This document shows, piece after piece, positions 808 to 46,873 of a DNA stretch of 64,000 nucleotides. The translations under genes were made by a program, and so were the position numbers. Positions within the stretch are counted from its first letter, which is position 1. Each line of letters begins with the position of its first letter. Source of the DNA: Mobula hypostoma (taxonomy: Eukaryota). The notes under the pieces are model-generated. The model searched no databases, was not told where the DNA came from, and was given only the letters and a program-made list of their open reading frames with translations. The stretch covers positions 135,286,001 to 135,350,000 of the forward strand of contig NC_086097.1 of the NCBI RefSeq assembly GCF_963921235.1, in the 5' to 3' direction.

Positions 808-809
808 TA

Positions 810-6260: not shown

Positions 6261-6313
6261 TGCCCTATTTCTTTCGGTGATATGACATGAAATTTAAAAA
6301 GTAAAGCACGTAC

Positions 6314-6416
6314 TTTTAAGTGATTGCTTGTTAAATGGAGTTTCTCACACATTTCAGTGAAGTACGGGAAAATGCATTGGTCCTGCAACAGGTAAACGGT
6401 CACATTCTGCTCATAG
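6314..6416 (-). pseudogene. fam83a: 5'-truncated exon 2 of fam83a
   Basis: YEQNVTVYLLQDQCIFPYFTEMCEKLHLTSNHLK|gtacgt aligns without gaps to human NKRGVFVCVLLDQGGVKLFQEMCDKVQISDSHLK|. The first ~21 codons of the exon (MDVFTD region) are absent after the acceptor cccctctctcccag. Confidence 0.85.
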
Positions 6417-6619
6417 CTGGGAGAGAGGGGTGGAATTACCAGGGTCAGAAGTTTGAACTTTTATTTGGTTTCAGTTCTGTGGAGAAATTGGGGAAGCTAG
6501 GATTGCTTGGAGAAGGTTCAGATCGAAATGTAATGGGATATGTTCAAACTCATAAAAGGTTCAGTTAAAATAAGTAGCTTCTAGTGGCAATACATAACAG
6601 TGAGCAGAGGAGACTCAGT

Positions 6620-7330
6620 GAAAGAGAATGGCAAAATAGCTAGAGGGCAGAATGTTTTTACATACTAAGTTTGATGTACAGAGGCATCTTGGAGTGGAAG
6701 TCCACAGCTTCCTGAAAGTGGAAACACAAGCCAATAGCGTGGTAAAGCTGAACAATATACCTGCCTTAATCGGCCAGAACGTTGAGTATAAGAGACAGGA
6801 AGTCGTGTTCAAGTGTATAAAACTTTGGTTAGACCACATTTGGATTATTATATCCAGAAGGGTGTGGAGGCTTTGGAAAGGGTGCAGAGGAGCTCACCAG
6901 GATGTTGCCTGGTCTAGAGTACATTAGCTATAAGGTGAGGTTGGATAAATTTGGGCTGTTTACTCTGGAGTATTGGAGGCTCAGGAGCAGCTTGATAGAA
7001 GTTCATAAAATTATGAGAGGTATATGTTGAGTTGTATTCCCAGGGTGGAAATGTCAAATACAAGAGCTTTACGGTGAGAGGGGTAAAGTTTTAAGGAGAC
7101 CTAGGAGGCAAGTTTTTGTTTTGAAGCACAGAAAGTGGTGTGAGCCTGGAATACGCTGTTAGAGGGGTAGATAGAATAAAAATGTTTCAAACAAAACATT
7201 TAGGCAGGCAGCTGAAGAGACAGCAAATGGAGGGAGGGATACGGACCATGTGCAGACAGACGTGCAGTTTAAATTGGCATCGTGGTTGGCACAGATATCA
7301 TGGACCGAATGCCATGCTCTTGATCTGCAT
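6620..7330 (+). mobile_element. Old CR1 LINE 3' fragment
   Basis: Degenerate LGVEVHSFLKV...TRMLPGLE motifs and CR1 3'UTR. Confidence 0.75.
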
Positions 7331-8151
7331 TGTTCCATGTCGAGATTTTGTGTGTGCAGGCAGTGGAAGCAAATTCAACAGGAGCTTTCAAAAGTAAACT
7401 AGAAATGTTTGTCTGGCTATGGCGGAGCTCCTTCAAAGAACAGACCCTTAATCCCCAGGGATCCCTCATTTATTATCTCCTCAGTCAATCCAAGGTAAGG
7501 ATTGAGAAAGAAACGAAAAGAGAAAAATCTGGACAGATCTGAGACAAATCATGAATGGAAAGAATCAAGAGGGAAATACATTTCATATTTTAAAAAATCA
7601 ACACTGAAGCTTAAGAACCTCAAGAAACAACTCACTGTAGGTTCTACAGTTTCAATTGGTCCTCTTCTGGGTCAGAGAGGTCGAGTGGCTTGTGAAAAAC
7701 TAAATCTTCTCATTAACAGGGGTGTTATTTCCAGAAGACCATAAGATATAGGAGCAGAATTAGCCCATTTGACCCATTGAGTCTGCTCCACCATTTTATT
7801 ATTTTCTCACTCAGCCCCAATCTCCTGCCTTCTCCCTTTATTCCTTCATGCCCTGACTAATCAAGAATCTATCAACCTTTGCCTTAAATGTACCCAATGA
7901 CATGCATTTTCTATCTCCCATTGTAATTTGCGGACCACCTCTTTACTACCGTTTGGGGGTCTGTAAATAACTTCCATCAGAGTCTTTTCATTCACTTCCA
8001 ACTCTAAAATCACAGCCATTCACAGCTCAGTACACACCTCTCTTTGGCCCAAGCTGCTGGAGATTTTTCGTGGATCACTTAACTGGGCTGTGGTTCACGG
8101 CAGGTTCAAGGTTTATTCCCTACCCGTGTCGCTATGAAATAAAAGTATTAC

Positions 8152-8504
8152 CTCAACAGCCTGGATGATGTAAAACCGTAATACGTCTTTGGTGCTGTGA
8201 GCCATCTTGGTTGAATGTAGACGCTGATATTTGAGGGCTCCTTCAGGTCGTACTGCTTGTAGGACATTGGCCGGCACTGGTCAGCCTCTCCCTAACAGAA
8301 GTACATTGCAACATGGGAGTTAGAGACCAGCTGGAGATCAGGTACTGATACATCTGACCTCCCATTCCACTGCAGGCTATCCAAGCGTTCTCAGTCAACC
8401 TGAGAGATTGCATCCACCTCAGTAGGTTCACCAACTTGTAATTTGTTTCCTTATTTTGCTTTTTTAGGTTATATCAAAGCGGGGATGTTTTTATGAATAT
8501 TCAT
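8152..8504 (-). pseudogene. fam83a: Decayed exon 1 of fam83a (DUF1669 N-terminus)
   Basis: Fragments SKIRKQI, ENAWIA, MYFC*, LKEPSNISVYIQP and MAHSTKDVLRFYIIQAVE|gtaata occur in shifting frames. They parallel human FAM83A GKIRKRL, ESARLA, TYFP, LKEKSSATVYFQ and HNNIRDLVRRCITRTSQ|. Stops at 8428-8430 and 8292-8294, frameshift near 8207. Syntenic position after tbc1d31. Confidence 0.75.
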
Positions 8505-21677: not shown

Positions 21678-21817
21678 CTATATTGTACTGTCTGTGAGGG
21701 AGTTAGTTGAATATGCCTGGAGAGCTCGCATTGCAAGTTTTTGTCTCAGCTCCCGTACGCCAGTCATTAATTCACGCTCCTTTCTTTCTAGGTCCATTTT
21801 TCCTCTATCTGAAGACA
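21678..21817 (-). CDS. tbc1d31: TBC1D31 terminal coding exon with TAG stop
   Basis: ttttttcttgtag acceptor; (L)SSDRGKMDLERKERELMTGVRELRQKLAMRALQAYSTNSLTDSTI*. Resembles human NLIKKVRNLRQRLTARA. Confidence 0.88.
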
Positions 21818-22722
21818 CTACAAGAAAAAAAACACAAATTAAAATGAACAATATGTTCATTTGTCAGGAATTACCAAACGTTCTTTCATGAAATATTGAG
21901 CACTAAAATCCGTTACAATCATTAACTATATTTGAGGCATATTTTTTGTTTTGGTGGGGGGTGGCCAAGGATGGAATAACGAGAGTGATACATAAAAACT
22001 TTCTCATTCAGCACAGAAACAGGCCTTTCAGCCCAACTCATCCATACTGACCAGGATTCCTAACCTCAGTAAGTCTTATATTCCCACATTCAATCCATAT
22101 TCCTCCAAACCTTTCCCATCCATTCCCTGTCCAAATGCCTTCTAAATATTGTTAATGGATCTGCTTCAACCACATTTCCAAAGTCTTGAGAGAAAGTCAC
22201 ATTGCACCCCCTTGGCCATTCAACAAACAATGAAGTTTGGGCAATTATTTTCCAAATTTAGATGAAGGAACAAGCAGAAAATCCCTTCATCTACAGTAGA
22301 GGCAAGATGCCTAAGAATCTTGCACAGTACTGTAATAACTTTATGTATTGCACTATTCTGTTGCCAAAATAAAAACAAATTTCATGACATACGAGTCATA
22401 ATAAATCTGATTCTGATATGGGTCTCTAATGTGGACTAAGAGTGGGAATGGGCAGGACAATCATGGTTGGGAAAAGGGGAAGGGGAAGGGGGAAGGAGGG
22501 AGTGGGAAGTATCTGTAATGATCAATAAACCAACTGTTTGTAATCTAACGACTTTGCCTGGTGTCTCTGGGCTGTGTGTCTGCATCCTTGTCACACCCCA
22601 CCACAGCACTCCTTCTCTGCCACCTGCTCCACACCCCTTTCGTGGCACTCCAACCTTGCCGTTCCCAACATCCTTTGCTTGCATTAGATTTACAAATGCT
22701 CTCTACTCTACGTTGACTAATA

Positions 22723-22790
22723 CAATACTGTGCAAAAGTCTTAGGCACCCAAGCTATGTACATGTATCCAAGACTTTCGCACTGAACTAT
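22723..22790. mobile_element. Tiny Tc1-type MITE-like palindrome (a related end at ~22309-22333)
   Basis: caatactgtgcaaaagtcttaggcac ... ccaagactttcgcactgaact imperfect inverted repeat, flanked by TA. Confidence 0.45.
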
Positions 22791-23814
22791 ACGTTACATT
22801 TTTTAAAAAAAATTAGAAGTACTATATTTGTAAGGATTTTTAAACATCATGACAAGAAAAGCAGTTCCCCATCAATGCCAGGTTGTGAAATAATATACAT
22901 CTTGAAATAAATTAAAATTAACAACAATCAGAATAGGGAGAAGGGAGTAGGCAGTTTAAATGGTTTGGCACAGACTAAATAAGTCAAAAGGCCTGTTTCT
23001 GTGCTGTACTTTTCTATGACACTATAAGAGAAACAGAAATTGTCTAATAGATGAATATGTGATTTGGGAAAAGAATACATTTGAAGGTAGGATAGAATGA
23101 GACAAAAAAGGTAAACTAAACGATGCGAAAGATCTGATAAAACAGATGCCAACTGTCTCGTGTTGGTGGAGGTGATGTACAAGGGAATTAACCTGTTTTC
23201 CAATCAGGTGGCTTTCAGTTTGATGACAAAGAAAATAGCAAAACTAGTTCATGTGATCTCTATAAGTTCGTAATGTGGACTTCTGCCACTAGTATACAAA
23301 TCTATCCCTCCCACTTCATTGTAATTTACATGAAATGGGATATCAGAACTGAACAATTTTCTCCACAATTAACAATTTATGAAATGTGTAGACTTGTGCA
23401 GTTTTGTCAGAAGCAGATTTCACTGCCCATGTTTCTCCATTACCTACACATAGGTGGAGGACATTCAGTAAGAACAAGTTTACCTCTCTTTCTAAGACAC
23501 CCAGCTACAGGGGGTGTCATTTATATTTACTTTAGACATGAATGTTTATTTGATTAAACTTGTGTTATACAAAAGGTTACTCTTTGTTAATGGAGGAGAC
23601 GAGATTACTGGAGAATAAAAAGCTGTTTTAAGATAATCTGCTTTTAGAAATTAGTCACACTTGTAACAAATTTTTAAGATCATACACAACTGGCGTGCAA
23701 CATTTTGAGAAGGAATGAAGGAAAAATCTCAATTGCATAAAATGTGAGTGTACATAAAAAATACAGTATTCATAGTTATGAACAGTTTGACACCAACTTC
23801 CGCCACGTGCTTAC

Positions 23815-23940
23815 ACTGAATTGAAGAGTCCAATGACATGTCATTCAAACACAGACTGGTATGCTTTTGGTCCCCACTGCCCAGTAACAGATCCCGTTCT
23901 TGTTTCGTTGGACCTTCAGGTCTTGAGTCATAAAGTCTCT
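23815..23940 (-). CDS. tbc1d31: TBC1D31 penultimate coding exon
   Basis: 126 nt, ttttctttccaag/gtaagc, (E)RLYDSRPEGPTKQERDLLLGSGDQKHTSLCLNDMSLDSSIQ. The end resembles human SQLNDSSEMDPSTQ; phase 1-1. Confidence 0.78.
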
Positions 23941-24138
23941 CTTGGAAAGAAAAGAAGCACAGTAAATCATTGAAACAGAACTCAATGTGGAACTGTTCAA
24001 GGAGCAAGGTGCCATCATCACACAAGAAGCAGGAACACTGCGCATAAGTATGGCGCGGTCTCTCTTTTCAGTTCTTTGACTCCTTCACATGCTCCACAGT
24101 GACAATTTTTTTCTGACAGGTGACAGGCTTTCACTAAC

Positions 24139-24156
24139 CTCTACCATGGCCTCCAA
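24139..24156 (-). CDS. tbc1d31: Candidate 18-nt microexon of tbc1d31 (adds VGGHGR)
   Basis: atttgctttcttgctttttttaag|TTGGAGGCCATGGTAGAG|gttagt. Frame-preserving phase 1-1, no stop. Confidence 0.4.
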
Positions 24157-24569
24157 CTTAAAAAAAGCAAGAAAGCAAATTTGATGGGGAAACAGATCTC
24201 TTTCTGTCCTGTACTCCAAGTCTGAAACCAATAGGACGTTACCTCAATTGACAGTCTGAACTCACACTGGTGATTGCTCTTCTCACACGCTTATGCTTGG
24301 CTAAGACCCAAAATTTTCACTGAGGAATAAAATCTTGATGTATCACTCTGAAGAATATTTTGGCATCCACTTTATCAAAAGTAACTTTGCAGCTGAAACT
24401 CCTTAGCTTATAAATTACTTCCTCTGTGCCTTGTTGAAATCGTTCAGAGTACACATCATTTATATTCTGTATTACAGTGGATCACTGCCTAACTCAATGT
24501 TATTCCAAAAATTTCAATATTAAATAGTTAAAAACTAAAGTGGTTCCTTAAGGTTGTTGTAACAAGAGT

Positions 24570-25130
24570 AGTTGTGGGTTTAAGCTCCTACTACCTATTA
24601 CGTGCTCCCAATGGCGTGCGACTCAAATAGCCTCTGACAAGCAAGTCTAGCTCTTGGCTTTCAGGTCTGGCTTAGCAACTAAGCCTGGTGGAACTGTTTC
24701 TACTGACAGGAGAAGAAGCAAGGGTGGACTACTGGCGCTTTAAAACCAGTTGCTTCGGGCAGATGGGGCATGTCAGCCGTGGTTGGCAGCTCACCTAGGA
24801 GAAGGAAAACTGATTTCAAACATCCGCTGCCTTGCAGCTATACCCACTCATGGGGAAGGCTTCGGGAGTAAATCTAGAGGGGAAATCCGGAGCTGGAGTC
24901 CCTAAAGCCGTCCTACGTTGAGTTCAACGCTGACTGGCAACGCTTGTGACAAACTGTCTCTGTAGGTCTCTGCCATTCCTTTGAGTTTATCAGATGCCTG
25001 GATAGGGGGAGCTTGCTATATGGGCAACAGCTTGCTCTCCATATCGTAATGCCCTTGCTTGCGTATTTAGACAGTTAGGATGCAACATCCATGATCGACC
25101 TTGACCAACAGAGGCCTCAACTCAACAACT
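24570..25130 (+). mobile_element. RTE-related non-autonomous retroelement
   Basis: Shares gatttcaaac..ccgctgccttgc..ctatacccactc..ggagtaaa..aaatccggagctggagtccctaa with the copy at 48315-48690. No ORF; (caact) tail. Confidence 0.55.
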
Positions 25131-25366
25131 CAAAAAGCAAAAGTGAGCTTGTAACGTCTGCAGTTTAGACCACAAGTGGTTGCTGACACCATTGTGAAAA
25201 TAGCCTATTTGAGATCTTGATATCAATCCACTGTTCTTTCTGAACCACACCACTCATGTCCCTGAACAAGATGGTCCCACCAAAGGCTTACAACCAAAGT
25301 GTTGGCCTTCCATTTCAAGCATGAAACTCTGTTTCCAATAAGCTGAGAAATGGTTTGGACGTTTAC

Positions 25367-25520
25367 CAAATGGATTGTAGGAGTTTCTGTGCATGCGATC
25401 ACCAATTTCCATGCCACCATTCACTCTGTCAGGCAACAACTGATGTCTCCAAGCAGGACCGTCACCTTTCTCTTGCTGACAAAATTGCTGATGAGTGGGA
25501 TTTGCAGCAACCTTCGTCCA
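25367..25520 (-). CDS. tbc1d31: TBC1D31 coding exon (divergent C-terminal region; donor position uncertain)
   Basis: Strong acceptor ttgtttccttgtacag. Begins with W as the human exon does: WTKVAANPTHQQFCQQEKGDGPAWRHQLLPDRVNGGMEIGDRMHRNSYNPF, then G|gtaaac (phase 1, as the next exon requires). Confidence 0.7.
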
Positions 25521-27383
25521 CTGTACAAGGAAACAAGATAAAATAGGCTTTCAGATTGGGAATGAAATTAAGGTTCCTCCCTGTAACCACAATTCACATC
25601 TCAACTCTAACATCAATGGTAAATTATTGGAAGGGATTTAGAGGGACAGCAGCTATCAACATTTGGATGGGAAAGGCTTAATTAGGGACAGTCAGCATGG
25701 CTTTGTATATGGGAAAATGTCTTACAAAACCCTTGGTGTATTTCCAAAGAGGTAACCAAATCATAAGGGTGAATAGTACTTTTCCCAAGGAAGGAAAACT
25801 AGAAACTAGAGGGCACAGCTTTAAGATGAAAGGCACCTTCTTCACACAGAGTGGTGCATCTATAGTATGAACTGTCAGGGAAAGTAATGAGGCAGGTACG
25901 ATAACAACACTTAAAAGATATTTGAATTAGTAAAACAGGGGTGTAGAGGCATAAGGACCAAACAGAGGCAAATAGGACTACTGTAGTTTGGTGGGCACCA
26001 TAGTCAGCAAGTTCGATTTAGGCTGAAGGACCTTTTCCCATATTATATTATTCTATGATTCTATATTATATGTTATATGGGTATATTGAAGCCACTGTTC
26101 ATTTGCATCATCAGATATCAATCTGTGGAAATAGCAAAATTTCCCTCATGTTGAAGAATTTACATCATAAACCAAAAAGACACAGGAGTAGAATTAGGCC
26201 ATCAGCTCACCGAATCTGCTCCTCCATTTCATCATGGCTGATCCATTTCCCTTTCAACCCCACTCTCCTGCTTTCTCTCCATAACCTTTCATGCCCAGAC
26301 TAATCAAGAACCTTTGCCTTAAAAGCACCCAGTGACCTGGCTTCCACAGAATCTGTGGCAACAAATTCCACAAATGCATCATCCTCCAGCTAAGGAATTT
26401 CCACCTCATCACAGTTCGAAATAGACGTCCCTCTATTTTGAGGCTGTGACGTCGGGACCTGAACTCCCCCACCAAAGGAAACACCCCCTTCACATCCACT
26501 CTATCTCGGCCCTTCAACATTCAATAGGTTTCACTGAGATTCTCTTCATTATCCTAAATTCCAGTGAGTACAGGCCCAGAGCCTTCAACACTGCTCATAT
26601 GATAACCCTTTCATTCCCAGAATCATTCTTGTGAACCTCCTTGAACCCTCTCCAATGTTAGCACATCCCTTTTTAAAATGAAGAGCACAAAATTGCTCCG
26701 TGAAGCCTCATCAGTGACTTATACACCTCAACATTCCATCCTTGCTTTTATATTCTAGTCCTCTTGAAATGCATTCGTCTTCGCCTTCCTCATCACCAAT
26801 TCAACCTGCAAATTAACCTTTAGGGAATCCTGCATGAGTACTTCCAAATCCCTTTGCACCCCAGATGTTTGAATTTTCTCTCCATATAAAAATGTTCTGT
26901 GCTTTTATTCCTTCTACCAAAGTGCATGACCATACACTTAGAACATAGAAAACGTACAGCACAATACAGGCCCTTTGGCCCACAATGCTGTGCTGAACAC
27001 GTACTTACTTTGGAAATTACCTAGGGTTACCCATAGCCCTCTATTTTTCTAAGCTCCATGTACCTATCCAGGAGCCTCTTAAAAGACCCTATTGTATCCG
27101 CCTCCACCACTGATGCCGGCAGCCCATTCCACACACTCACCACTCTCTGTGTAAAATACTTACTCCTGACATGTCCTCTGTATCTGCTTCCAAGCCCCTT
27201 AAAACTGTGCCCTCTCATGATAGCCATTTCAGCTCTGACTATCCACACGATCAATGCCTCTCATCATCTTACACACCTCTATCAGGTCACCTCTCATCCT
27301 CCGTCGCTCCGAGGAGAAAAGACCAAGGCCACTCAACCTATTCTCATAAGGCATGCTCCCCAATCCAGGCAACATCCTTGTAA

Positions 27384-27515
27384 CACACATAAAAGTTGCT
27401 GGTGAATGCAGCAGGCCAGGCAGCATCTCTAGGAAGAGGTGCAGTCGACGTTTCAGGCCGAGACCCTTCGTCAGGACTTGCTTGAATTTCCAGCATCTGC
27501 AGAATTCCTGTTGTT
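27384..27515. mobile_element. Penelope pLTR mini-insertion with inverted 3' tail
   Basis: 13-bp TSD AACATCCTTGTAA (27371-27383, 27516-27528). Body on the minus strand, 37-nt tail on the plus strand. Confidence 0.88.
27443..27478 (-). ncRNA. Minimal type I hammerhead ribozyme motif (Penelope pLTR), intact core
   Basis: AGTC-CTGACGA-AGGGTCTCGGCCT-GAAAC-GTC-GACT: stem I AGTC/GACT, CUGANGA and GAAA boxes, stem II, palindromic ACGT stem III, GUC cleavage triplet. Confidence 0.75.
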
Positions 27516-30500
27516 AACATCCTTGTAAATCTCTTCTGCACCTTTTCTATAGTTTCCACATCCTTCCTGTAGTGAGGTGACCAGAATTGAGCACAGTACT
27601 TCAAGTGGGGTCTGACCAGTGTCCTATATAGCTGTAACATTACCTCTCGGCTCTTAAACTCAATCCCACAGTTGTTGAAGGCCAATGCAGCACATGACTT
27701 CCTAACCACATAGTTAACCTGCACAGCAGCTTTGAGTGTCCTATGGACCCTAAGACCCCTCTGATCCTCCACACCGCCAAGAGTCTTACCATTAATACTA
27801 TATTCTGCCATCATATTTGACCAACCAAAATGAACCACCTCACACTTATCTGGGTTAAACTCTATCTGCCACTTCTCAGCCCAGTTTTGCATCCTATCGA
27901 TGTCTCACTGTAACCTCTGACAGCCCTCCACACTATCCACAACACCCCCAACCTTTGTGTCAGCAGCAAATTTACTAACCCATCCATCCCTCCACTTCCT
28001 CATCCAGGTCATTTATAAAAATCATGAAGAGAAGTGGTCCCAGAACAGATCCCTGAGCCACACCACTGGTCACCGACCTCCATGCAGAATATGACCTGTC
28101 TACAACCACTCTTTGCCTTTTGTGGGCAAGCCAGTTCTGAATCCACAAAGCAATGTCCCTTTGGATCCCATGCCTCCTACCTTTCTCAATAAGCCTTGCA
28201 TGGGGTACCTTATCAAATGCCTTGCTGAAATCCATATACAGTACATCTACCTTCAATGCGTTCAGTCACATTCTCAAAAAAATTCAATCAGGCTCGTAAG
28301 GCACAACCTGCCTTTGACAAAGTCATGCAGATTATTCCTGATCATATTAAGCCTCTCCAAATGTTCATCAATCCTGCTTCTCAGGATCTTTTCCATCAAC
28401 TTACCACTGAAGTAAGACTCACTGTATAATTTCCTGGGCTATCTCTCCCTCCTTTTTTGAACAAGGGAACAACTTCTGCAACCCTCCAATCCTCTGGAAC
28501 CTCTCCCAACCTCATTGATGATGCAAAGATCATTGCCAGAGGCTCAGCAATCTCCTCCCTTGCTTGGGGTGTATTTCCTCTGGTCCCAGTTACTTATCCA
28601 ACTTGATGCTTTCCAAAAGCTCCAGCACATCCTCTTTCTTAATGTCTATATACTCAAGCTTTTCAGTCCACTGTAGGTCATCCCTACAATTGCCAAGGTC
28701 CTTTTCTGTAGTGAATACTGAAGCAAAGTATTCATTAAGTACCGCCGCTACCTCCTCCGATTCCTTACACACTTTTCCACTGTCACACTTGATTGGTCCT
28801 ATTCTCTCATGTCTTATCCTCTTGCTCTTCACATACTTGTAGAATGCCTTGGGGTTTTCCTTAATCCTGCTTGCCAAAGTCTTCTCATGGCCCCTTCTGG
28901 CTCTCCCAATTTCATTCTTAAGCTCCTTCCTGCTAGCCTCATAATTTTCTAGATCTCTATCATTACCTAGTTTTTTGAACCTCTCCTAAGCTTTTCTTTT
29001 CTTCCTGACTCGATTTTCAACTGCCTTTGTACACCATGGTTCCTGTACCCTATCATCCTTTCCCTGTCTCATTGGAACGCGCCTGTGTAGAAAGTCATGC
29101 AAATATCTCCTGAACATTTCTGCCGTACATTTCCCCAAGAACACCAATTACTAATTTATGTTTCCAAGTTCCTGCCTAATAGCTTCATATTTCCCCTTAC
29201 TCTAACTAAACATTTTTCTAACTTGACTGTTCCTATCCCTCTCCAATGCTATGGTAAAGGAGATAGAATTACAATCACTATCTTCAAAATGCTCTTCCAC
29301 TGAGAGACCTGGCACCTGACCAGGTTCATTAAAATTAAAATCCCCCATCACGACAACCCTGTTATTACTGCACCGTTCCAGAATCTGTCTCACTATCTGC
29401 TTCTCAATGTCCCTGTTACTATTGGGTGGTCTATACAAAACACCCAGTAGAGTTATTGACCCCTTCCTGTTTCTAACTTTCGCCCACAGAGACTCAGTAG
29501 ACAATCCCTCCATGACTTCCTCCTTTTCTGCAGCCGTGACCCCATCTCTGATCAGCAGTGCCACGTCCCCACCTCTTTTGCCTCCTTCCCTGTCCTTTCT
29601 GAAACATCTAAAGCCTGTCCTCTTTGTACAGGTCACTCCTACCCCAAAAGAGGTCCCAATGATCCAGAAATCTGAATCCCTGCCCAATCCCTCAGCCACG
29701 CATTTATCCTCACCTCACTCTATTCCTATACTCACTGTCGTGTGGCATTAGCAGTAATCCGGAGATTACTACCATTGTGGTCCTGCTTCTCAGCTTCTTT
29801 CCTAACTACCTGCAGTCCATTTTCAGGACGACCTCCCTTTTCCTACCCATGTCGTTGCTACCAATATGTACCATGACCTCTGGCTGTTCACCTTCCCACT
29901 TCAGGATATCATGGATGCGATCAGTAACATCCTGGACCCTGGCACCTTGGAGGCAAACGACCATCTGTGTTTCTTTCCTGCGTCCACAGAATCGCCTGTC
30001 TGACCCCCTAACTATAGAGACCCCTATCACTGCTGCCATCCTCTTCCTTTCCCTACCCTTCTGAGCCACAGGGCCAGACTCTGTGCCAGAGGTGCAGCCT
30101 CTGTTGCTTCCCCCACGTACTCAAACAGGAGAACTTATTGTTAAGGGGAACAGCCATAGGGGCACTCTGTAGTATCTAACTCCTGCCCTTCCCTCTCCTG
30201 ACTGTTACCCACTTATCTGTCTCCCGAGGCCCTGGTGCAACTACTTGCCTAAGCTCCTCTCTATCACCTCCTCACTTTCCTTGACTAGACAAAGGTCATT
30301 GAGCTGCATCTCCAATTCCCTAACCCGGTTCCTAAGGAGCTGCAGCTCAACGCACCTGGCACATGTATGGCCATCCGGCAGGCTGGGAGTCTCCCGGACA
30401 TCCCACATCTGACACCAAGTAGAGAACACTGGCCTCACAGACATACTTCCTGTTTCTTTTCTTCACAAGTAACTTACGTGTTATTGCCGACCACCTCCTA

Positions 30501-33319
30501 ACAGTTCATTCTTTCTGCCACCTCTTCGCCCATTCTCCGAATCCAAGTACTTCTGCAGCCTCTCTGCTTCCTCAACACAACCTACCCACCTTCCACCTAC
30601 TTATCTTCATATCGTCCACAAACATAGCCACAAAGCCATTAATTTCCTCATCCATATCGTTGACATACAACATAAAAAACAGCAGTCCCAACACAGACCC
30701 CTGTGGAACACCACTAGTCACTGGCAGCTAATCAGACAAGGATCCTTTTATTCCCATTTTTTGCCTCCTTCCAATCAGCCAATGCTCTACCCGTGGTAGT
30801 ACCTTTCCTGTAATACCCTGGGGTCTCATCTTGTTTAGCAGCCTCCTGTATGGCAACCTTGTCAAAGGCCTTTTGAAAATCCAAGTAGTCAAAATTCTCC
30901 TTTGTCTATCCTACTGGTTGTTTCTTCAAAAAATTCCAACAGATTTGTAAGGCAAGATATTCCCTTGAGGAAATCATGCTGATTTTGGCGTATTTTGTCA
31001 TCTGCCTCCCAGTGCCCCGAAACCACATCCTTAACAATCAACTCCAACATCTTCCCAGCCACTGAGGTCAGGCTAACTAGCCTATAATTTCCTTTCTTCT
31101 GCCTCCCTCCCTTCTTGAAGAGTAGAGTGACATTTGCAATTTCCGTCTCCTGGAACCATGCCAGAATCTACTGGTTCCTGAAAGATCATTACTAATGCCT
31201 CCACAATCTCTTCAGCTACCTCCTTTAGAACCTTGCAGTTTAGCCCATCAAGTCCAGGTGACTTATCCTCCTTCAGACCTTTCAATTTGCCAAGCACCAT
31301 CTCACTAGTAATAGCAACTGCACTTTAATCTTCTTCATGATAACATCAAACTTCCAGCATACTGCTAGTGTACTTCACAGCGAAGACTGACCCAAATACT
31401 TGTATAGTATTGCCTTTGAAACACTTCCTGTTCTTTGGGATGATGCATCTATCCTGTGCCTTCCAAACTGCTCACAGAAACTCCAGCCATTGCTACTTTG
31501 CTATCATCCCTGCTAGTGTCACCTTCCAATCATCTTTGGCTAGCTCCTCTCTCATGCCTCTGTAGTTCCCTTTACCCCACTGTAATACGGATACATCTGA
31601 CTTTAGCTTCTCCCTCTCAAACTGCAGGGTGAATTCTATCATATTATTATCATTGTTTCTTAAGTGTTCCTTTACCTTAAACTTCCTAAGCATATCTGGT
31701 TCACTACACAACACCCAATCCTGAATTGCTGATCTCTGTGTGGGCTCAACCATAAGCTTCCCCAAAAAGCCATCTCGGAGGTATTCCACAAATTCTCTTG
31801 ATTTTTCCAAATCTATCAGCATATTGAAATCTTCCACGACTAACGTAACATTGCCTTTTTGACATCCTTTTTCCATCTCTTGCTGTAATTTGTAGACCAC
31901 ATCCTGGCCCATGTTTGGAGACCTGTCAGGGTTTTCCTACCCTTGCAGTTTCTTAACTCTACCTACAAGGATTCTACATCTTCTGATCCTATGTCACCTC
32001 TTTCTAAAGATTTGACTTAATTTTTTTTTAATCAGCAGGGTCATACCTCTTCCTCTGTCTATCTGCCTGCCCTTTCGATAGATTGTGTATCCTTGGATAT
32101 TAAACTCCCAACTACACTCATCTTTCAGCCATGACTCCATGATACCCACAACGTCGTAAGATCATCTACCTTATTTTGTATACTGCATGCATTCAAATAT
32201 AACACCTTCAGTCCTGTATCAATTTTGTCCCCCTTTACACTGCAACCCATCCCACTGACTGCATTTTGCACTATCATCTGCCTGTCCTTCCTGACAGTCT
32301 CACTATACACTACCTCTGCTTGTAAACCAACATCCCTATACTCTGATTCCCAATCCCCTTGTCAAATTAGTTCAAGATCTCCTCAACAGTTCTAGCAAAC
32401 CTATCCACAAGGATATCAGTCCCCCTCAGGTTCAGGTGTAGCCCATCCCTTTTGTACAAGTCATATCTTCCCCAGAAGAGATCCCAATGATCCATAAATC
32501 TGAAACACTACCTCATGCACCAGGTCCTCAGTCACACATTTATCTGCCAAATCATCCTATTCTTGCCCTCGGTGGCATGTGGCACAATCCAGAGATCGTT
32601 ACCCTAGAGGAGCTGCTTTTCAGTTTTCTACCTGGCTCTCCAAATTCTCAACTTAGAACCTCCTTTTCTTTCCTATGTCATTGGTACCAATATGTACTAA
32701 GATGTCTGGCTGGTCACCCACCACCTTCATAATGTTGTGGACACGATCCGAGACGTCTCTGACCCTGTTAAAGAGCAGAGCAAAAACACAAAGTTGCAAG
32801 TTTCACCTGGGAGGCAACATACCATCTGGGTCTCTCTATTGTGTTCACAGACTCTCCTATCCACACCTCTAACTATGGAATCTCCTATCACCACTTCATT
32901 TCTCCTCTGCCCCCTTCCCTTCTGAGTCACAGCATCAGGCTCAGTGGCAGAAACCTGGTTACTGTGGTTTCCCTCGCTAGGTTCCCTCCCCAACAGTATA
33001 CTTGTTATTGAGGGGAATGGCCACAAGGCTACTCAGTACTGTATGCCTATTTCCCTTCCCTGACAGTCTGTCTCCTGAAATCTAGGGGTGATTACCTCCC
33101 TGTACTTCCTATCTATCATCTCTTCAGTTTCCCTTATGAGCCAAAGGTCATCAAACTGCAGCTCCAGTTCTTTAACATGTTCCCTGAGGAGCTGCAGCTT
33201 GGTGCATCTGGTGCAGATGTGGTTACCCGGGAGGCTGGAGGTCTCCCAGGATTCCTGGGATTTATGTACATTTTGTTCTAGAACACAGACCAGTATTGCT
33301 TGGGAATTATCAGTATTAA

Positions 33320-33935
33320 AGAGCACCCAACGCGGACACTCTTATCAAAAAGGCTCAGCAGAGGTTGTATTTCCTACGTCAACTCAGAAAGTGCAACCTA
33401 CCTAAGGAGCTGCTGATTCAATTCCATTCAGGAATAATTCAGTCTGTTCTCTGTTCGTCCATCACTGTCTGGTTTGGATCAGCTACCAAACAAGACAAGA
33501 ATAGACTCCAAAGAACCGTCAGGGCTGCGGAAAGGATTATTGGTGTGAAGCTGCCCTCAATCCAGGACTTATATGCATCTACAGTCAGGAAGCGAGCAAG
33601 CAGCATCATTGTAGACCTATCACACCCTGGACATCACCTATTCCAACTCCTTCCTTCTGGTAGGTGTTTTAGATCACTGTATGCCAGGACAAATAGGTAT
33701 AAGAACAGCTTCTTTTCGTATGCCATCAGTCTTATGAACACTTGAATTTTAGTCTATTGTAAACCAAGTCCACCTGTACATACACAGGTATACCTCATTG
33801 TATATAGTTCACGATTATTTGCACTATTCTTTTGTTTGCTTTTTGATTCTGTACAGCGAGAGCTCAGGGAAACCAGCATCAAATTCCCTGTATGTGTCCA
33901 CATACTTGGCGACAATAAAGGATTCTGAATCTGAG
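33320..33935 (+). mobile_element. Rex1/Babar LINE 3' fragment (distinct subfamily)
   Basis: YFLRQLRKCNLP...SITVWFGS...HPGHHLFQLLPSGR; AATAAA plus (ttctga) tail. Confidence 0.85.
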
Positions 33936-34957
33936 CAAAAACACGAGGTTGAAAGTTTCACATACCAAGGATATCCCAAAGCCACTATCTACAGGATTCA
34001 GTTTTTCCAAGGAAACAACTTGAGTATCAACATTCCAGTTTACTATTGCATGTCTGATTAGTTGAAAATAATCAAGCTGGGCTTCTCCCTTTGAATTGGA
34101 GATCAGCAATATTCTACTAACTCCTGAAGGATAGTTAGAATTACTTGCCTAAACAGTTATGATTTAAAACAATGTTAGTGCAAGTCATTTGTTAAAGTGA
34201 GATTGAGAGTTCGTCCCCAGGGATAAAATGACTAAACAAATGCTTAAAAGTATTTTGCATACGTGTAAGCCCTGACATCTGCCTATACTGATCTTGAGAA
34301 GCAAAATCCATCCATAAACAACCAAGTAATAAATCAAAGGAAAGGTCTGAGCTGTAGTATTGTTTACAATTCTAGACATTACACTTTGGAAGAGTCGTTA
34401 TGGTCTGGAAAATCTCTCATTAAATGGGCCATGAAATCAGCCTGAATGACACTTCTGCAAAATAAATACACAAATGGAGAATGGTAAGAGGACTGCAAAG
34501 AACTGCATTGAAAGAACCAGTAAAGGCATGACTGGCTGGATGGTCGTCTTCTGTACTTTTTAAATACATCAAAAATTTGGAGTATGCATTCACCCAGAGG
34601 AGATGACTCTTTTTCGCTGGCAACCAAATGTCAGCACCCGAACAATGAGTGGGCTGCACGATTGCACAGAAATGCAAAAGTTGTTGTCATTTGGCTCATG
34701 TTAACCTTATAATTTTCATTCACTTCACATTTGTATTACAGATCCAGTTGATAAGTCTGTCCCTCCCATCTTTTGTCAAAACGATGTAGTATTCTACAAT
34801 ACTTTAACTATTTGATGCCAAGCAACATGTTGATGTTGCCTGGAACTCTTTTCCCCCATTATGAGAGCAGAGGTGATAAGGACAACAGGATGTAGTTAAA
34901 GCACTGGTGGATAGGAATCCATTAAAAAAATTTCTTCCGCCTTTTCAATTGACTTAC

Positions 34958-35152
34958 CCGCTTATCTTCAAGTTCATTCATCATATCCAAAAGCTTGGCC
35001 TCTTTTTCCTTATTCTCACTGGCAAGACATGCCAATTCTGCCTGGGATTTCTTTTGATTTAAACTGTATTCCCTTTGTTTGTTCAGTATCCGTGCTTGCC
35101 AGTCCTCATTATTCGATAGCTGATTGGTTCTGGCCAACTCCTCTAAGGTGTT
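34958..35152 (-). CDS. tbc1d31: TBC1D31 coding exon
   Basis: 195 nt, cag/gtaagt, NTLEELARTNQLSNNEDWQARILNKQ...ENKEKEAKLLDMMNELEDKR. Confidence 0.88.
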
Positions 35153-35289
35153 CTGGTCAGGGAAGTAACAAATTTACATTAATGTTCTTGTTCTCTGCAG
35201 GTCTTATTTTTCAATCTGTAAAACGCTTACAGAGAGTATTTGTGAATTAAAATACTGCAGGGAAAACATAGTTGTCTCATTAATTCTGG

Positions 35290-35490
35290 AGGCAACAAAA
35301 ACTGAAACATTGGAGGAACTCAATGTAGAGGGAAATGGATATTTAACATTTCAGGCTGAGACCTTTAATCCTGATGAAAGGCCTCAACCTGAAATGTTGA
35401 CTGTCCATTTCCCTACACAGATAGTGCCAGACCCAATGAGTTCCTCAAGCATTTTGATTTTTGCTCCAGATTCCAGCACCTGCAGTTCTG
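35290..35490. repeat. Palindromic Penelope-pLTR-derived element with a central hammerhead-like motif (similar at ~9695-9850, ~20580-20715, ~35585-35730, ~35930-36130)
   Basis: ttggaggaactca...agggaaatgga...aacatttcaggctgag / ctcaacctgaaatgtt...tccatttccct...tgagttcctcaa arms; CTGATGA...GAAA at 35371-35394. Confidence 0.65.
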
Positions 35491-36692
35491 ATGGCTAGTG
35501 CAGCAACACTGGGTTGGACAGTTTCTCAATCCCCTACTGATCCAAACAAGACTAATAACCTAATAAAGCGAGTGACTACCTTAAAAAGACACAAGAGAGA
35601 CTGTAAATACTGTGAATCTGAATCAACGGACACAATGTGTTGAATGGTTTCAACCCAAGATGTCAACACCTCATTTTCTTCCACATATGTTACCTGATCT
35701 GCTGAGTTCTTCCAGAATTTTCTGTGTTGACTACTTTAAAGATCTAACAGAAAACAAAGTGTCTGTGTGTGATACGAGTTCCATGTTAAAGTACAAAGAA
35801 TTTAAACATAAGTATCTAAATAAAGCACGTTATTAAGAACAGCTTCTTTCCAAGTCTCGTCAAAAAGTAATTTGATAATAATAATCCAGATAAAAAGCAA
35901 TTAATTTCTGAAATACATAAGAATTCATATCGATACACTAGACACTGGAATTTGAGCAACAAATCATCTGTTGGAGGAACCCAATGGGTTGAGTGAGTCC
36001 AGTGGGAAAAAAATTGTTGAGCTTTCAGGTCAAAACTCAACAATGCAGGGTTTTAACTCAAAGTGTTAACAATTCCTTCCCTCCCACCCACTGCCTCACA
36101 CAACAAATCTGTTCATTCTACATTCATCTCCAGCAATTTCACTTTGAGTTTTGATTTTGAACCTTCATGATGACAAAGTAGTGCAAGTAATTGCTGGATC
36201 AATTAATTGCTTGATTGGTCCCAACAACAACATTTTCCCAGTTCTGTAAAAATTCAGAGGCTGGGCCATCCTTACATGATGTGAGGGTTTTTAAAGAGCT
36301 TCCACAACCCGTAAGATTGCTCATGGCTGCTTGTTTTGGAGACAAGTTTGTAATTTAACTACTACTGGCATTACTAATTTTTCTGCTTTCTTTTTGCATG
36401 ATTAAATATTTATGTTCAAGTACTACCTTGCATCAGCATCAATTTAAGACACAATGATCCTGAACAAAGCAAGTGCCTATTCAGCCAGCATATTAGCCTA
36501 AAGCACCTTAGAGAAAGGTGCTTATTAATCCAGGGAATAAATCAAAATGCAAATGTTTGATCACGGCAATGTGGCATGTCTTTGTGAAGGAGCTATTTGC
36601 TGTGGGCGTAAATAAAACTGGGGGACTTGCTTGAACTGAATTGCACACAATGAATGTTCCAAGAACCTCATCACCTAATGAATGTGCTTCAC

Positions 36693-36833
36693 CTTATATT
36701 CCTCAACATCTGGACGTTGGTCCATTTCCAACTGGTTCTTAAACTCTTGTTCTTTGATATCGCCTTTGATCCAGTTGATACCCAGCTGTCCTTTCACGCT
36801 TCGTGTCATAGCTTCTTGCTCCTTGGCAAATTG
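36693..36833 (-). CDS. tbc1d31: TBC1D31 coding exon
   Basis: 141 nt, cag/gtgaag, QFAKEQEAMTRSVKGQLGINWIKGDIKEQEFKNQLEMDQRPDVEEYK. Phase 0-0 fits its neighbours. Confidence 0.85.
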
Positions 36834-37261
36834 CTGCAATTTAAAATAACAGGAGTTACACATTTAGAAAATACAAATGCCTTTTAATTATCTGTTTATT
36901 GCAGATTGATTATTTTGTGATGGATAGTCGACGTCCAGGGCCTGGTGTGTCTTATTACCGAGCTTAGCTTTATAACATAGTATTTGACTCTTCCATAGTA
37001 TTTGCTCAGCTTCTTGTTGTAAACAAGAACCAGTCTTCAGTTCTTAATGTAAATTGCAAGCAATAATCGGTTTGAAGTTACAAGGACAGCTTTGCAAACA
37101 AACAGCACTGTCTCTACAGCATAGGGTCTAGCTGCTCAAGAGATGCAATGTAAAACAATGGGGTTATGTTAATTGGACCTGCATCAAACCAGATAACAAT
37201 TGCGAAGTTATTTAGATCCAGGAAGCTTACAGAGCAAATTGATATGTATTATCACTTAGCA

Positions 37262-38467
37262 CAGGGGTCCCCAACCTTTTTTGCATTGCGGACCGGTTTA
37301 ATATTGACAATATTCTTGTGGACCGGCCGACCGGGGAGGGGTAGGGTTGCCAACGGACAAGAATAGCAGTCAAATGCATTGTTTACCCAGAAAGACTACA
37401 ATGACCATGAAGCCTTGCGCGTGCACCCCAGTGCGCATGCGCTTCGTGACCTGCCGATTCCCCCCCACCAGCAAATCCTTTTTGGCGATTCTGTTTGTGG
37501 GGGTGGGTGTTAATCACTACTGGAATATAGGCGATAAGTGGGTAATACACTCAATTTTGTTTCTAAAAGGGTTTATCTAACAAATTTAATATGAAACACA
37601 CAGCGCATATTTTCCTCGCATGAATATAGTGATAAGTCAATTATCAGGGGAGCATGAAGTAAGTGTTGAACAAACTTCCAGTAGAAGTGGTAGAGGCAGG
37701 TTCGATATTATCATTTAAAGAAAAATTGGATAGGTATACGGACAGGAAAGGAATGGAGGGTTATGGGCTGAGTGCAGGTTGGTGGGACTAGTTGAGAGTA
37801 GCGTTCCGCACGGAATAGAAGGGCCGAGATGGCCTGTTTCTGTGCTGTAATTGTTATATGGTCACTTATAAGTCAATAGCATCATAACATTTTTAGGAAC
37901 ATTTGGATATTAAACACACAGCACATATTTTCCCCGTATAAATATATAAAATCATTGCAACACACCAATATCGCTGAATCAGTGGGAGCCCTGGGCTTGT
38001 TTCCCTGCAACAACACGGTCCTATCGAGGGGTGATGGGAGACAGCGATACTCGAAGGGGGTTCCTTATGTCCAGTCTATTCCGCAATTTAGTTTACATTG
38101 CATTCATTGCAGAAAACTCCACTTCGCAGAAAAATGGAAATGAAAGCAACGTTTTCAGTGCTTTCATGGCTATCTCAGGATATTTAGCCTTGACTTTGAT
38201 CCAAAATGCTGACAGAGATGTTATGTCAAACATGCTTTTCAGCCCGTCGTCATTTGCAAGCTCCAGGAGTTGATCTCCTTCCCACCCTGACACAGATGAC
38301 GCGCGGGTCATGACCTCGCATGCGTAATGGCTGATCAGTGGCCGTGACAGGGAATGAGGAAAGGTGCAGCAGACTCATATCGCCAAATCATATCGCTTCC
38401 TCGTGGCCCGGTAGCGCATGCTCTGCGGCCCGGTACTGGTCCGCGGCCCGGTGGTTGGGGACCGCTG
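37262..38467 (-). mobile_element. hAT-Charlie non-autonomous DNA transposon with transposase C-terminal remnant and an embedded CR1 fragment
   Basis: TIRs CAGGGGTCCCCAACC / GGTTGGGGACCGCTG and 8-bp TSD ACTTAGCA (37254-37261, 38468-38475). FWIKVKAKYPEIAMKALKTLLSFP...CEVEFSAM hAT dimerisation-domain remnant. Confidence 0.93.
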
Positions 38468-39305
38468 ACTTAGCACATCAAGTAGCTGGTCTATCAATAG
38501 TTGGAAGATTTATGCACTCAAAGAGTAATTTTGTGTGTCTGGGATCTCTGCCCCAAAGGTTTTTAGACCATTTATGTAAATTTCCCAGCAAAGATATTTG
38601 AAAAATATCACGTGTGTGAAGTCACCTAGTAACAAAAATAATATATAATGTAAAAGAGCAGTTAGACTTGTTCGGAATGGTCAAGGAACGGTAAGAAGAA
38701 TGCCAGAAAGATGGGGTGACTAAAATCCACTCCTCTGCCTTCAGCTTCTCCAATGGATTACTTGTTTGGCTGCAGCTCATTGGTATGTCTTTTTAGCTTA
38801 TAGGAATTGTGTTATTACAGCCTTTAAATCCTTTGTGCTTTTGAAATCGTTTGTAATTTGGAAATCTTTTATAAGATAGAAAGCTTCTGAGTTTAAAGGT
38901 GTTTTAAGAAATTTATCTAAATTTAAACATGTATCACTAAAAATAAATGAATTGTGTTTAAACTAGTCCATTAGCTGAAAATATCTTCTCCTTGGTAGGG
39001 AGGATGGACCCACCGTTCAAGTAGTGAGTACTGGCAGCTAAACTCACTGTGCAGGATAAACAGGGAAGGATCTAGCCTTTGAGGAGTAGCGTAACTTCCC
39101 TTTACTGAGGGTATCTGTAGCTGTCTATATCAGGTAGAGCTCAAGATCTTTGTTTGAGTTCAGAATTTCACGGACCGCAAACCCAATAGCATTACAATTC
39201 AAACTTGACACAACTAAATATATATACAAAATTTAAAAGTACATGGCTACTCTCTCAAATACTTAAAATTCCATGTAAATGCTGCAATACCATGAACACA
39301 CCCAC

Positions 39306-39870
39306 AAACACAAGAAATCCTGCAGATGTTGGAGATCAAAAGCAACACACACAAAATGCTGGCGGAGCTCAGGTCAGGCAGCTTCTATGGAAATGAATAA
39401 AGAGTCGAAATTTTGGGCCAGGACCCTTCATCAGGACTGAAAAGAAAGGGGGCTAGTAGCAGGAACAAGGTAGGGGGACCATACAAGAAGCTGGAAGGTG
39501 ACAGGTGGAAAGGTAAGGGACTGGAGAAGAAGGAATCTGATAGGAGAGAAGAGTGGACCATGGAGAAAGGGAAGCAAGAGGAGCATCAAGAAGAGGCGAT
39601 AGGCAGGTGAACAGAAGAGGCAAGAGGAGGGCCAGAATAGGGAATTGAAGGAGAGGGAAAGAGGAGGGGTAAAATGACCAGAATTTGGAGAAATCAGGTT
39701 GGAGGCTACCCAGATAGAATATGAGATGTTACTCCTCCAACCTGAGTGTGGCTTCATCATGGAAGTACAGGAGGCCATGGACCAACATGGCAGAATGGGT
39801 ATGGGGATTGGAATTAAGATAGTTGGCCACTGGGAGATCCTGCTTTTTATGGATGAAGCAAAGGTGCTCA
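39306..39870 (-). mobile_element. Older Penelope 3' fragment
   Basis: Homologous to 2803-3400, including the GIY-YIG C-terminal coding part; degenerate hammerhead at 39403-39438. Confidence 0.85.
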
Positions 39871-40323
39871 TTTCCTGAAAGACTAGCATGGAAATGTATC
39901 TGATTGTGTTTTCTTTCCCTTTAAACTTTACTGTATAAATATAATACTTTGTACAATTTATGTACAACTTATATTGTGTCGTGTCTATTATCTGCCTGTG
40001 ATGCTGCTGCAAGTTCTTCATTGTATTCATACTTGCCCACATGGCAATAAACTAGACTTTCTTTTTTTAAATAGGCTATGCTTAAACCAAAGTCTGCAAT
40101 GCACAGAAACTACGTGTATTTAATAAGATACATATTTAATTTAACAAATATTGAAGAACCATGTTTATTCCAGTGGAAGTAATCAGAACTGATATTCATT
40201 GTATTTTCACATCAGTGTCTTAAAATTTATACTGTATTAAAAAAAAGACTAATAGTAAGCTTTTTATCTATGCTGATTCTCCAGACATACTATACTATAA
40301 GAACAGTAAAGGGCAATTCATAC

Positions 40324-40416
40324 TTGCTCAAATATTCGTTTTTGCATCTCCAGTTCCACATTTCTCACTTCGATGTCCTGAATTAATGCAGCAGTTTCCT
40401 TTTCCCGGAGAGCGAT
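40324..40416 (-). CDS. tbc1d31: TBC1D31 coding exon
   Basis: 93 nt, aag/gtatga, IALREKETAALIQDIEVRNVELEMQKRIFEQ. Confidence 0.92.
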
Positions 40417-41073
40417 CTTAAACCAAAATGAAAGACAATTTTTGTTTATCCATGAAATTCACTTTGAACTTTAAACAGACAAGATACTGACAAGTTTGAA
40501 GAGAGTGGGTGGGGTGGGGAGGAAAGTATTTTGGATTCTTTTATATATTTACTTGAAGCAGATTCTTTTCTAGCAGAACAGATTTGATGGACCGAATGGC
40601 CTACTCCTGTTCCTTATTATTTATTTAATTCATGAACACGATGGCAGAAATTTATTCAAAGCTCATAATACCCATGATGCATTGGGAGAGGAGGGGAAAG
40701 GATCATTCAAGCGGTGTGGAACATCATTGCTTAATATTGGTTCCACAAAGACAGCAGGAATTAAGCCAATAATTTGTTTTGTGGTTAAAACTTCCACACT
40801 TCCACAGGCTACAGACTTAGAATGGCCAAGTCTACCCATCTTTATTCCAGTACTATCCACTGAGTCTCTAAAAAAGACCACTCTTCATGGCTGGTTATAG
40901 AGGGGCAAAGGCAATGGAGCAGGTTGGCAAACCTGCCAGGGAACGCCAAGAAAGTCAGTATGTGGAGTTGTCTGCCAAGACTTTGGAGCGGGGCCACAAC
41001 AGATTTTGCAGATCCAGGCCACAAACAAATCTCACTGTTTTTACAGAATTAAAGAGGGGAGAATTTCACAGAC

Positions 41074-41209
41074 CTTTCTATCAATTTCATCATCCAGCCG
41101 CCTCAATTCAGATTTCTGTTGCTCTTGTTGATGTTTCAGAAGGCGCTTTTGTGCTGCATCCAACACTTGAAGTTCTTTTATCTTCAATTCACGATTCACA
41201 GCAGCAAGT
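41074..41209 (-). CDS. tbc1d31: TBC1D31 coding exon (coiled coil)
   Basis: 136 nt, aag/gtctgt, LAAVNRELKIKELQVLDAAQKRLLKHQQEQQKSELRRLDDEIDRK. Confidence 0.93.
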
Positions 41210-41487
41210 CTTCAGAGGGAGAAAAAGCATATTCAGTAAAGAGAGACACTAACTTTGCAGCCAGTTAAGATGTGCACTTTGATAGTTACTTGTCCCTTAC
41301 TGGAGTATGTCTATTCATTTTCAACAAAGAATTAAAACCTACCATGTACACACACACACACAAAAATATCTAGTCAAGTGTTACAACTTGCAGTGTTTGG
41401 ATTTCCCACTTCTGATTTGGAAGGCACTTGCAGAGGAATTGCAGTAACATTGCAGGGACTTGAACATTTATCATACACTGTCATTCA

Positions 41488-41710
41488 GAGGGCAATACTG
41501 AAAGGTGTTGCACTTTCAGAGGAGCTGCCTTTGAATGAAATACTGAATTGAGGTCTTCTCCACTTTCTCAGGTACATGTAAAAGATCCTATAGGACTGTG
41601 TGAAGGAGAGTGAGGAGTTCTCTCTGGCATCCTGACAAACATTTCATTCCAGGCAAATTATCTGATTGTTTATTGTGGTTTATCAGATTTTGCTGTGAAT
41701 AAACTGGCTG
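41488..41710 (+). mobile_element. Ancient DeuSINE (SacSINE1/AmnSINE-like Deu domain)
   Basis: ctcaggtacatgtaaaagatccta...gaaggagagtgaggagttctctctggcatcctgacaaacattt resembles the remembered Deu-domain consensus. Confidence 0.65.
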
Positions 41711-42802
41711 TAGAAAGCTTTGGAACATGGAGGGTTTGAAAGACTGAAGTTGTATAACTGCAATTTCTTTACTGATTTCTTTTTGTAGATGATTTCCCTC
41801 AGCATAATAAATGAAATAAGCACAACTTTGATCAATTTATTAAATGAATTTTAATGTTTAAAAGCATATCAACTCCCAAGATCAGTGATTTGCTGTGACT
41901 GCATACAATTCCCTCCTCCAGTATTGCACAGAAGTGCTGGCCTGGTTTATGGATTCTGTTGACTGGATTAGGACATGAACAGATATGGTTCTGACTAGGA
42001 GGTTCTGAGCTAAAGTTAACATTCGGAGGGGGAGGAGATCTACATAAAAAAAACGGGGGACAGAATGGTGGTGCAGCAGATAGTGCAGCTTTCCCAGTAG
42101 TCCAGCAATCTGGGCTCAATCTTGACCTTTGGTGTTCTGTGGTGTTTTGCAGGTCTTTTGACTGAGCGTGTTTACCCTGCATACTCTTTCCTCCACATCC
42201 CAATAATGTATTAGTAAATAGGTTAATGGGCAACTGTAAATTACCCCTCATTCTGGTGACAGGAAAACCTGAGTGGTAAGAGAGAGGATGGGTGGAAGGA
42301 GAATTAGTGGGAGAATGGTATTGATGGGATTGCTCCAAGATTCATGATAGACTCAATGGGCTCCTATGCTCTGAGGAAAAATGAAAACATTACTTTTTTG
42401 GAAAATATATAATGAAGAAATTTGAAGTGAAAAATAATTTGCAAGAAAGTCAGTCACAAATTGTAAAACATACTGTAGTGTTCTATGACTCTATATTTAA
42501 GAGAAACTTGGATAGGTATATGTATGAAAGGAGTATGGATGGCTATGGTCCGGGTGCAGGTCGATGGGACTAGGCAGAGTAATGGTTCGGCACAGACTAG
42601 ATGGGCCAAAGGGCCTGATTCTGTGCTGCAGTGTTTTACGGCCCTATGAATATTATTAGACAACAGAAATCTGACCAATGGCTGACAGTAAACTATAAAG
42701 AGGGGATATAAACAGAAGGGATGACAAGACGGCCTACAGGGATGAGGTCCAGCACCTGGCTGCATGGTGTGCCGACAACAATCTGGCCTTTAAACAACCC
42801 GG

Positions 42803-43996: not shown

Positions 43997-44593
43997 ACAT
44001 AGAAACAAAGAAAATAGGTGCAGGAGTAGGCCATTCGGCCCTTCAAGCCTGCACCGCCATTTATTATGATCATGGCTGATCATCCAACTCAGAACCCTGC
44101 ACCAGCCTTCCCTCCATACCCCCTGATCCCCGTAGCCACAAGGGCCATATCTAACTCCCTCTTAAATATAGCCAATGAACTGGCCTCAACTGTTTCCTGT
44201 GGCAGAGAATTCCACAGATTCACCACTCTCTGTGTGAAGAAGTTTTTCCTAATCTCGGTCCTAAAAGGCTTCCCCTCTATCCTCAAACTGTGACCCCTCG
44301 TTCTGGACTTCCCCAACATCGGGAACAATCTTCCTGCATCTAGCCTGTCCAATTCCTTTAGGATTTTATACGTTTCAATCAGATCCCCCCTCAATCTTCT
44401 AAATTCCAACGAGTACAAGCCCAGTTCATCCAGTCTTTCTTCATATGAAAGTCCTGCCATCCCAGGAATCAATCTGGTGAACCTTCTTTGTACTCCCTCT
44501 ATGGCAAGGATGTCTTTCCTCAGATTAGGGAACCAAAACTGCACACAATACTCCAGGTGTGGTCTCACCAAGGTCTTGTACAACTGCAATAGT
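43997..44593 (-). mobile_element. CR1 LINE 3' fragment of a different subfamily, tail-to-tail with the previous copy
   Basis: ORF 44089-44649: LVRPHLEYCVQFW...FFTQRVVNLWNSLP. Confidence 0.93.
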
Positions 44594-46755: not shown

Positions 46756-46873
46756 AAACAACAGGAATTCTGCAGATGCTGGAAATTCAAGCAACACACA
46801 TCAAAGTTGCTGGTGAACGCAGCAGGCCAGGCAGCATCTCTAGGAGGAGGTACAGTCGATGTTTCAGGCCGAG
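46756..46873 (-). mobile_element. Penelope pLTR 3' tail fragment, adjoining a CR1 RT fragment at ~46575-46750
   Basis: aaacaacaggaattctgcagatgctggaaattcaagcaacacacatcaaagttgctgg..., truncated inside the hammerhead. Confidence 0.85.

Follow-up and report, generated by a model that had tools for sequence, protein, structure and literature searches.

The FAM83 proteins, which have been studied mostly in cancer, are said, in the available part of PMC11495952, to occur in all jawed vertebrates. Their DUF1669 domain is necessary and sufficient for binding casein kinase 1 (CK1), all eight FAM83 proteins bind CK1-alpha, and CK1 binding requires an Asp (pseudo-HKD) together with the first Phe of an F-x-x-x-F motif, as stated in the available sections of PMC6008594. 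For FAM83A itself, excerpted text on the mouse protein reports that it supports white adipocyte differentiation and mitochondrial upkeep (PMC9493395). The human gene order is given as TBC1D31, FAM83A, C8orf76 in the portion of PMC6368290 at hand, and the Zhx1/Zhx2 block, including TBC1D31, FAM83A and C8orf76, is called stable across vertebrates in the accessible text of PMC7144352. Lineage-level gene loss in cartilaginous fishes has been described for the shortwave opsins (PMC12361510, partial text).

The locus analysed here lies in a 64,000-nucleotide stretch of the Mobula hypostoma genome (assembly GCF_963921235.1, contig NC_086097.1, positions 135,286,001 to 135,350,000), which is hereafter called the window and is numbered from its first letter. 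The locus resembles human FAM83A (PF07894, PDB 4URJ) in that its remnant is collinear with chain residues 7-21 and 62-97 and adjoins tbc1d31. In contrast to human FAM83A, the remnant has no full-length frame, its exon 1 is blocked and short, the 5' third of its exon 2 is deleted, and exons 3-4 were not found within the window. Compared with the shortwave opsin losses, as far as these are covered by the text available (PMC12361510), the likeness would be one of lineage-level gene loss in cartilaginous fishes, whereas the gene is a different one and the FAM83A case in rays comes without an adaptive link; the ray remnant keeps its intron, splice sites and syntenic position. Overall, we consider it quite probable that fam83a was lost at the orthologous locus in one old event, likely in an ancestor shared by several rays, and this is likely to be a fairly ordinary gene loss.

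Synteny and family membership of the remnant

The 3' exons of tbc1d31 (residues 483-1088; 21678..58408, minus strand) provide the syntenic anchor. They were recovered as 11 tblastn pieces that run in order from 58408 to 21681 on the minus strand, with the stop codon at 21678. Across nine tbc1d31 exon cores (451 aa), a single mismatch was seen against Mobula hypostoma XP_062912312.1, compared with 7 against M. birostris, 22 against Hemitrygon and 28 against Hypanus. The FAM83 remnant begins 13,174 nt beyond the tbc1d31 stop, downstream and on the same (minus) strand, so the original prediction of a position next to tbc1d31 with matching orientation is confirmed, with tbc1d31 upstream. The remnant thus adjoins tbc1d31 on the downstream side, as expected of a fam83a orthologue, and the c8orf76 side falls beyond the window edge. 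We take human TBC1D31 and FAM83A to share this same-strand orientation. Additionally, one tbc1d31 piece (25523-25362, minus strand) matched Pristis at 57% and had no Carcharodon match at the cut-off used; it is far less conserved than the neighbouring pieces, which match Pristis at 76-95% with the exception of the two-exon first piece.

The exon-2 remnant (6314..6418, minus strand) consists of the 3' 35 codons of the exon in an open frame and encodes a SACK1/DUF1669 fragment. Its match to Pfam PF07894 (SACK1), with 25.1 bits against a cut-off of 21.4 (E 1.6e-5) over profile positions 162-195 of 274, assigns it by domain sequence to the FAM83/SACK1 family, as a fragment only, and it gave the one SACK1 match in the 75 windows scanned around the locus. 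When the same piece was searched against PDB (177,635 sequences), the sole match at E<=10 was human FAM83A (4urj_A, residues 62-97, E 0.24), aligned over 36 columns without gaps, in agreement with the ungapped alignment that had been proposed for this piece. A profile that pooled an exon-1 piece with exon 2 placed FAM83A first in PDB (18.3 bits, E 0.017) and FAM83B at 12.4 bits, these being the only two paralogues to appear, and it set the exon-1 motif at 8255-8211 on 4urj_A 7-21, collinear with and upstream of the exon-2 match. The other four pooled profiles were weaker in PDB, with FAM83A second in one, third in one and absent from two.

The remnant belongs to the FAM83 family and most likely represents the fam83a orthologue. 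The predicted orthology stands as regards the family, the best match (FAM83A) and the syntenic position, and it is drawn mainly from synteny because the sequence scores are weak. It is highly unlikely that the remnant derives from another FAM83 paralogue, or that the supposed exon 1 is unrelated and only exon 2 is real. Such a reading would draw on the weak scores, on the use of only FAM83A and FAM83B as comparators and on the want of Pfam support for exon 1; however, FAM83A came first both with the exon-2 query and with the pooled profile, the motif in exon 1 lies collinearly and on the right strand, with a GT donor 59 nt after it, and the synteny points to the same gene.

A dead duplicate, with an intact fam83a surviving elsewhere, either moved or duplicated in tandem beyond the left window edge, is also unlikely. 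The left-hand neighbours lie beyond the window and the comparison was confined to its 64 kb, which leaves room for such a copy, but the remnant occupies the human-syntenic position, a scan of 60 windows from the parts of 1-6420 outside transposons gave the exon-2 control as its one SACK1 match, and the accessible text of PMC7144352 describes the Zhx1/Zhx2 block as stable across vertebrates. We therefore favour loss at the orthologous locus, and the pseudogene is probably unitary, with no other fam83a in the genome, a judgement drawn from synteny alone. Wider searches for an intact FAM83 homologue yielded no FAM83 protein from any species and are uninformative on which species keep the gene: phmmer over 1.84 billion representatives returned 0 matches, a word-index search gave 3 candidates with the exon-2 piece and 5 with a pooled alignment, of which 0 scored, in metagenome contigs 585 pattern matches were obtained and 0 confirmed, and the ESM Atlas gave no usable match.

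Structure and lesions of the two exons

The two exons are separated by intron 1 (6417..8151, minus strand), a GT..AG intron of 1735 nt, and GT splice donors are present at 8150..8151 for exon 1 and at 6312..6313 for exon 2. The original prediction had named both of these minus-strand donors, the one after 8152 and the one after 6314, and had called the intron retained; both statements agree with the sequence. Because the intron has been kept, the remnant is not a retrocopy: the retained intron and splice sites identify an unprocessed pseudogene, and the syntenic position likewise differs from what a processed pseudogene would show. Within the intron lie a short repeat of very high copy number (~7735-7900) and, on the plus strand, a LINE reverse-transcriptase fragment (~6679-7176), over which relatives too have contigs that look orthologous.

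The decayed exon 1 of the FAM83(A) gene (8152..8504, minus strand) has an uncertain 5' limit, which was taken at the ATG at 8504, and the original start may differ. All three frames are blocked, with 4, 4 and 9 stops, and the exon measures 353 nt when counted from the ATG at 8504, versus the ~417 nt (~139 SACK1 profile positions) expected before exon 2 by inference from the profile, which bears out the shortening that had been proposed. A complete N-terminal DUF1669 in one reading frame is consequently absent, with stops in 3/3 frames of exon 1 and an exon 2 that is ~21 codons short.

The further proposal of a FAM83-like peptide in exon 1 was upheld for one 15-residue FAM83A motif in collinear position and found no counterpart in Pfam, where 50 exon-1 queries (4 + 28 + 18) gave no SACK1 match. 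This best-kept motif (8211..8255, minus strand) has 7/15 identities to human FAM83A 4urj_A 7-21 and scores 3.4 bits by itself; it was the top of 127,912 six-frame window positions (score 29, next 24), the motif having been picked after the match was seen. Two single-frame exon-1 queries against PDB gave chance matches only and no FAM83 match, an NCBIfam search of exon 1 gave nothing relevant, and the final 19 codons before the exon-1 donor had no match in any search made. A QLQ match to exon 1 (Pfam, E 0.08) was rejected as stray. Pieces further upstream in exon 1, in different frames, presumably resemble the human FAM83A N-terminus. On the sequence evidence, the one collinear motif weakly supports homology of exon 1 to FAM83A. 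From this motif (8255-8211) to the exon-1 donor there are 59 nt; for an intron in phase 0, which we take to be the phase of intron 1 of FAM83A, whole codons would need one nucleotide more.

Exon 2 is without ~64 nt (~21 codons) of its 5' end, a lesion that the original prediction did not include. At the deletion junction (6416..6418, minus strand), which was recognised from the relatives' contigs, the pyrimidine tract and AG are fused to mid-exon 2, and the deletion may have arisen via short homology at the acceptor AG.

When 8291-8152 is joined to 6416-6314 (minus strand) at the surviving GT/AG, the reading is in frame, with an ATG at 8267. This splice leaves a short open reading with four stops upstream and the domain core missing, and the in-frame joining is read as chance. 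No CK1-anchoring protein would be possible from these two exons.

Exons 3-4, which we take to carry the CK1-binding Asp and Phe of FAM83A beyond the matched part, gave no SACK1 match when 1-6420 outside its transposons was searched with Pfam in 60 windows, exon 2 serving as the control. They may be situated beyond the left edge of the window, or they may be too decayed; the latter would be in keeping with a limit of Pfam itself, because exon 1 escapes Pfam as well.

Reads of the same species and its relatives, and the age of the loss

Four of 24 sequencing runs, aligned to 6150-8900 at 80% likeness, represent organisms A, B, C and D, and the relatives' substitutions and indels are those placed among the alignment rows listed. 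Organism A is the same species (X1) and probably the assembled individual, and four organism A runs have 0.93-0.95 of sampled words in common (one sample). The divergence from the window is 1.5% for organism B, 4.6% for organism C and 6.9% for organism D.

Read-level contigs of organism A over 6180-6727 and 7909-8900 show 0 differences and 0 gaps, with both exons exact, and therefore an assembly error is very unlikely. Organism B crosses the exon-2 5' junction ungapped, i.e., it has the same ~64-nt deletion as A; it has no exon-1 cover and is uninformative there (84% of the run read). With raw-read contigs that match exactly and a second species that has the same exon-2 deletion, the probability that an assembly error hides an intact gene is negligible. 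The lesions of the probably unitary pseudogene are accordingly real, and the raw-read check that had been proposed for them came out in their favour.

At the exon-2 junction, organism D has 91 letters versus 27 in the window (+64 nt); its match to the intron reaches 6418, and that to the exon resumes at 6390. Organism C breaks at this junction too, with 120 letters left over, and we infer that the extra letters of C and D are exon sequence. Replacement of the 5' half of exon 2 by a LINE was considered and rejected, as in organism D the intron match continues as far as 6418 and 64 additional letters follow. A deletion of 10 nt, at 6320 within exon 2, is private to organism D.

In exon 1, organism D over 7951-8272 has a single gap, which is intronic, and no indel in 8152-8272, so that the 3' length of its exon 1 equals that of A. 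Organism C over 8046-8389 has 11 deleted letters compared with A, placed no more closely than this segment, and no insertion (net -11). Further upstream, organisms C and D both have 3 extra letters at 8460, and their alignments are interrupted over 8390-8410; this suggests additional deletions on the A side. In one organism D contig (X10 record 14), 1990 letters left of 8411 are unplaced, possibly as a large insertion inside exon 1.

The spacing of exon-1 motif and exon-2 match is 126 nt in human FAM83A (4urj numbering) and 60 nt in the window, and in organism D it would be 124 nt, provided that the splice sites are the same and no lineage-specific indel intervenes. The difference between 124 and 126 nt, together with the private 10-nt deletion, argues that organism D is broken as well. 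Organism D is likely to share an exon-1 frameshift with A, and from its own 10-nt deletion and its exon-1 3' length equal to that of A, the loss likely predates these splits. The inactivation in the original prediction is borne out, but the breakage is not confined to this species, and the loss is older than had been implied because the most distant relative aligned (organism D, ~7% diverged) is also broken.

The comparison of exon-bearing with non-exon pieces gave 6/552 (1.1%) versus 9/473 (1.9%) for organism B (Fisher p 0.31), 30/503 (6.0%) versus 50/1231 (4.1%) for organism C (p 0.10) and 47/709 (6.6%) versus 102/1455 (7.0%) for organism D (p 0.79). To any significant degree, divergence of the exon-bearing pieces was not lower than that of the non-exon pieces in B, C or D. 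The exon-bearing pieces are only 19-69% exon, and the neutrality test is weakened because they mix exon and intron. Decay since the loss has probably been neutral.

These comparisons also bear on whether the Mobula line and organism D lost the gene independently rather than in one old event, which appears quite unlikely. The two clearest lesions are indeed private, namely the 64-nt deletion of A and B and the 10-nt deletion of D, and the lesion in common (the 59 nt before the donor) hangs on phase 0 for the intron and on the human spacing. Against two events, however, the length of D equals that of A over 8152-8272, over 8046-8389 organism C has 11 gaps, a net change of -11 and hence no insertion when compared with A, and the exon-bearing pieces show no constraint in the comparisons with C or D. 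Under the single old loss that we prefer, the gene would have been inactivated ahead of the split between A and D and would then have decayed further as private deletions were added, and the lesions would be layered, with the older ones in exon 1 (common to relatives 5-7% diverged) followed by the exon-2 deletion.

Meaning of the loss and neighbouring elements

The loss was likely tolerated because of redundancy among the eight FAM83 paralogues, all of which bind CK1-alpha, and losing one of eight is not very surprising; no trait is tied to the loss yet. Survival of a lineage that lacks FAM83A would mark this paralogue as dispensable and would open the way to tests of compensation by other CK1 anchors. 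Additionally, the layered indels could serve as rare markers in ray phylogeny.

In a broader scenario, which we consider unlikely, a single early loss would have removed FAM83A from rays but not from sharks, and a whole vertebrate clade would then amount to a natural knockout of this CK1 anchor and proto-oncogene. Given the part of mouse FAM83A in white-fat differentiation and mitochondrial upkeep, such a loss would reflect relaxed selection in fishes whose lipid is stored in the liver rather than in fat cells. The link of the loss to ray lipid storage is speculative and was not found in print. A published account of FAM83A loss in rays was likewise not found in open-licence full text, and the supplements of PMC12361510 and PMC7144352, in the parts available, contained no match for this loss, which is apparently unreported.

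Left of exon 2, the window holds mostly transposon remnants. A DDE_3 transposase fragment (1575-2192, plus strand) is open over 205 aa, with a Pfam E of 3e-17, and is presumably Tc1/mariner-like. A retroelement with overlapping long frames occupies ~3190-5400 on the minus strand; its RVT_1 match is weak and below the cut-off (24.3 versus 29.6), and we take the element to be Penelope-like.
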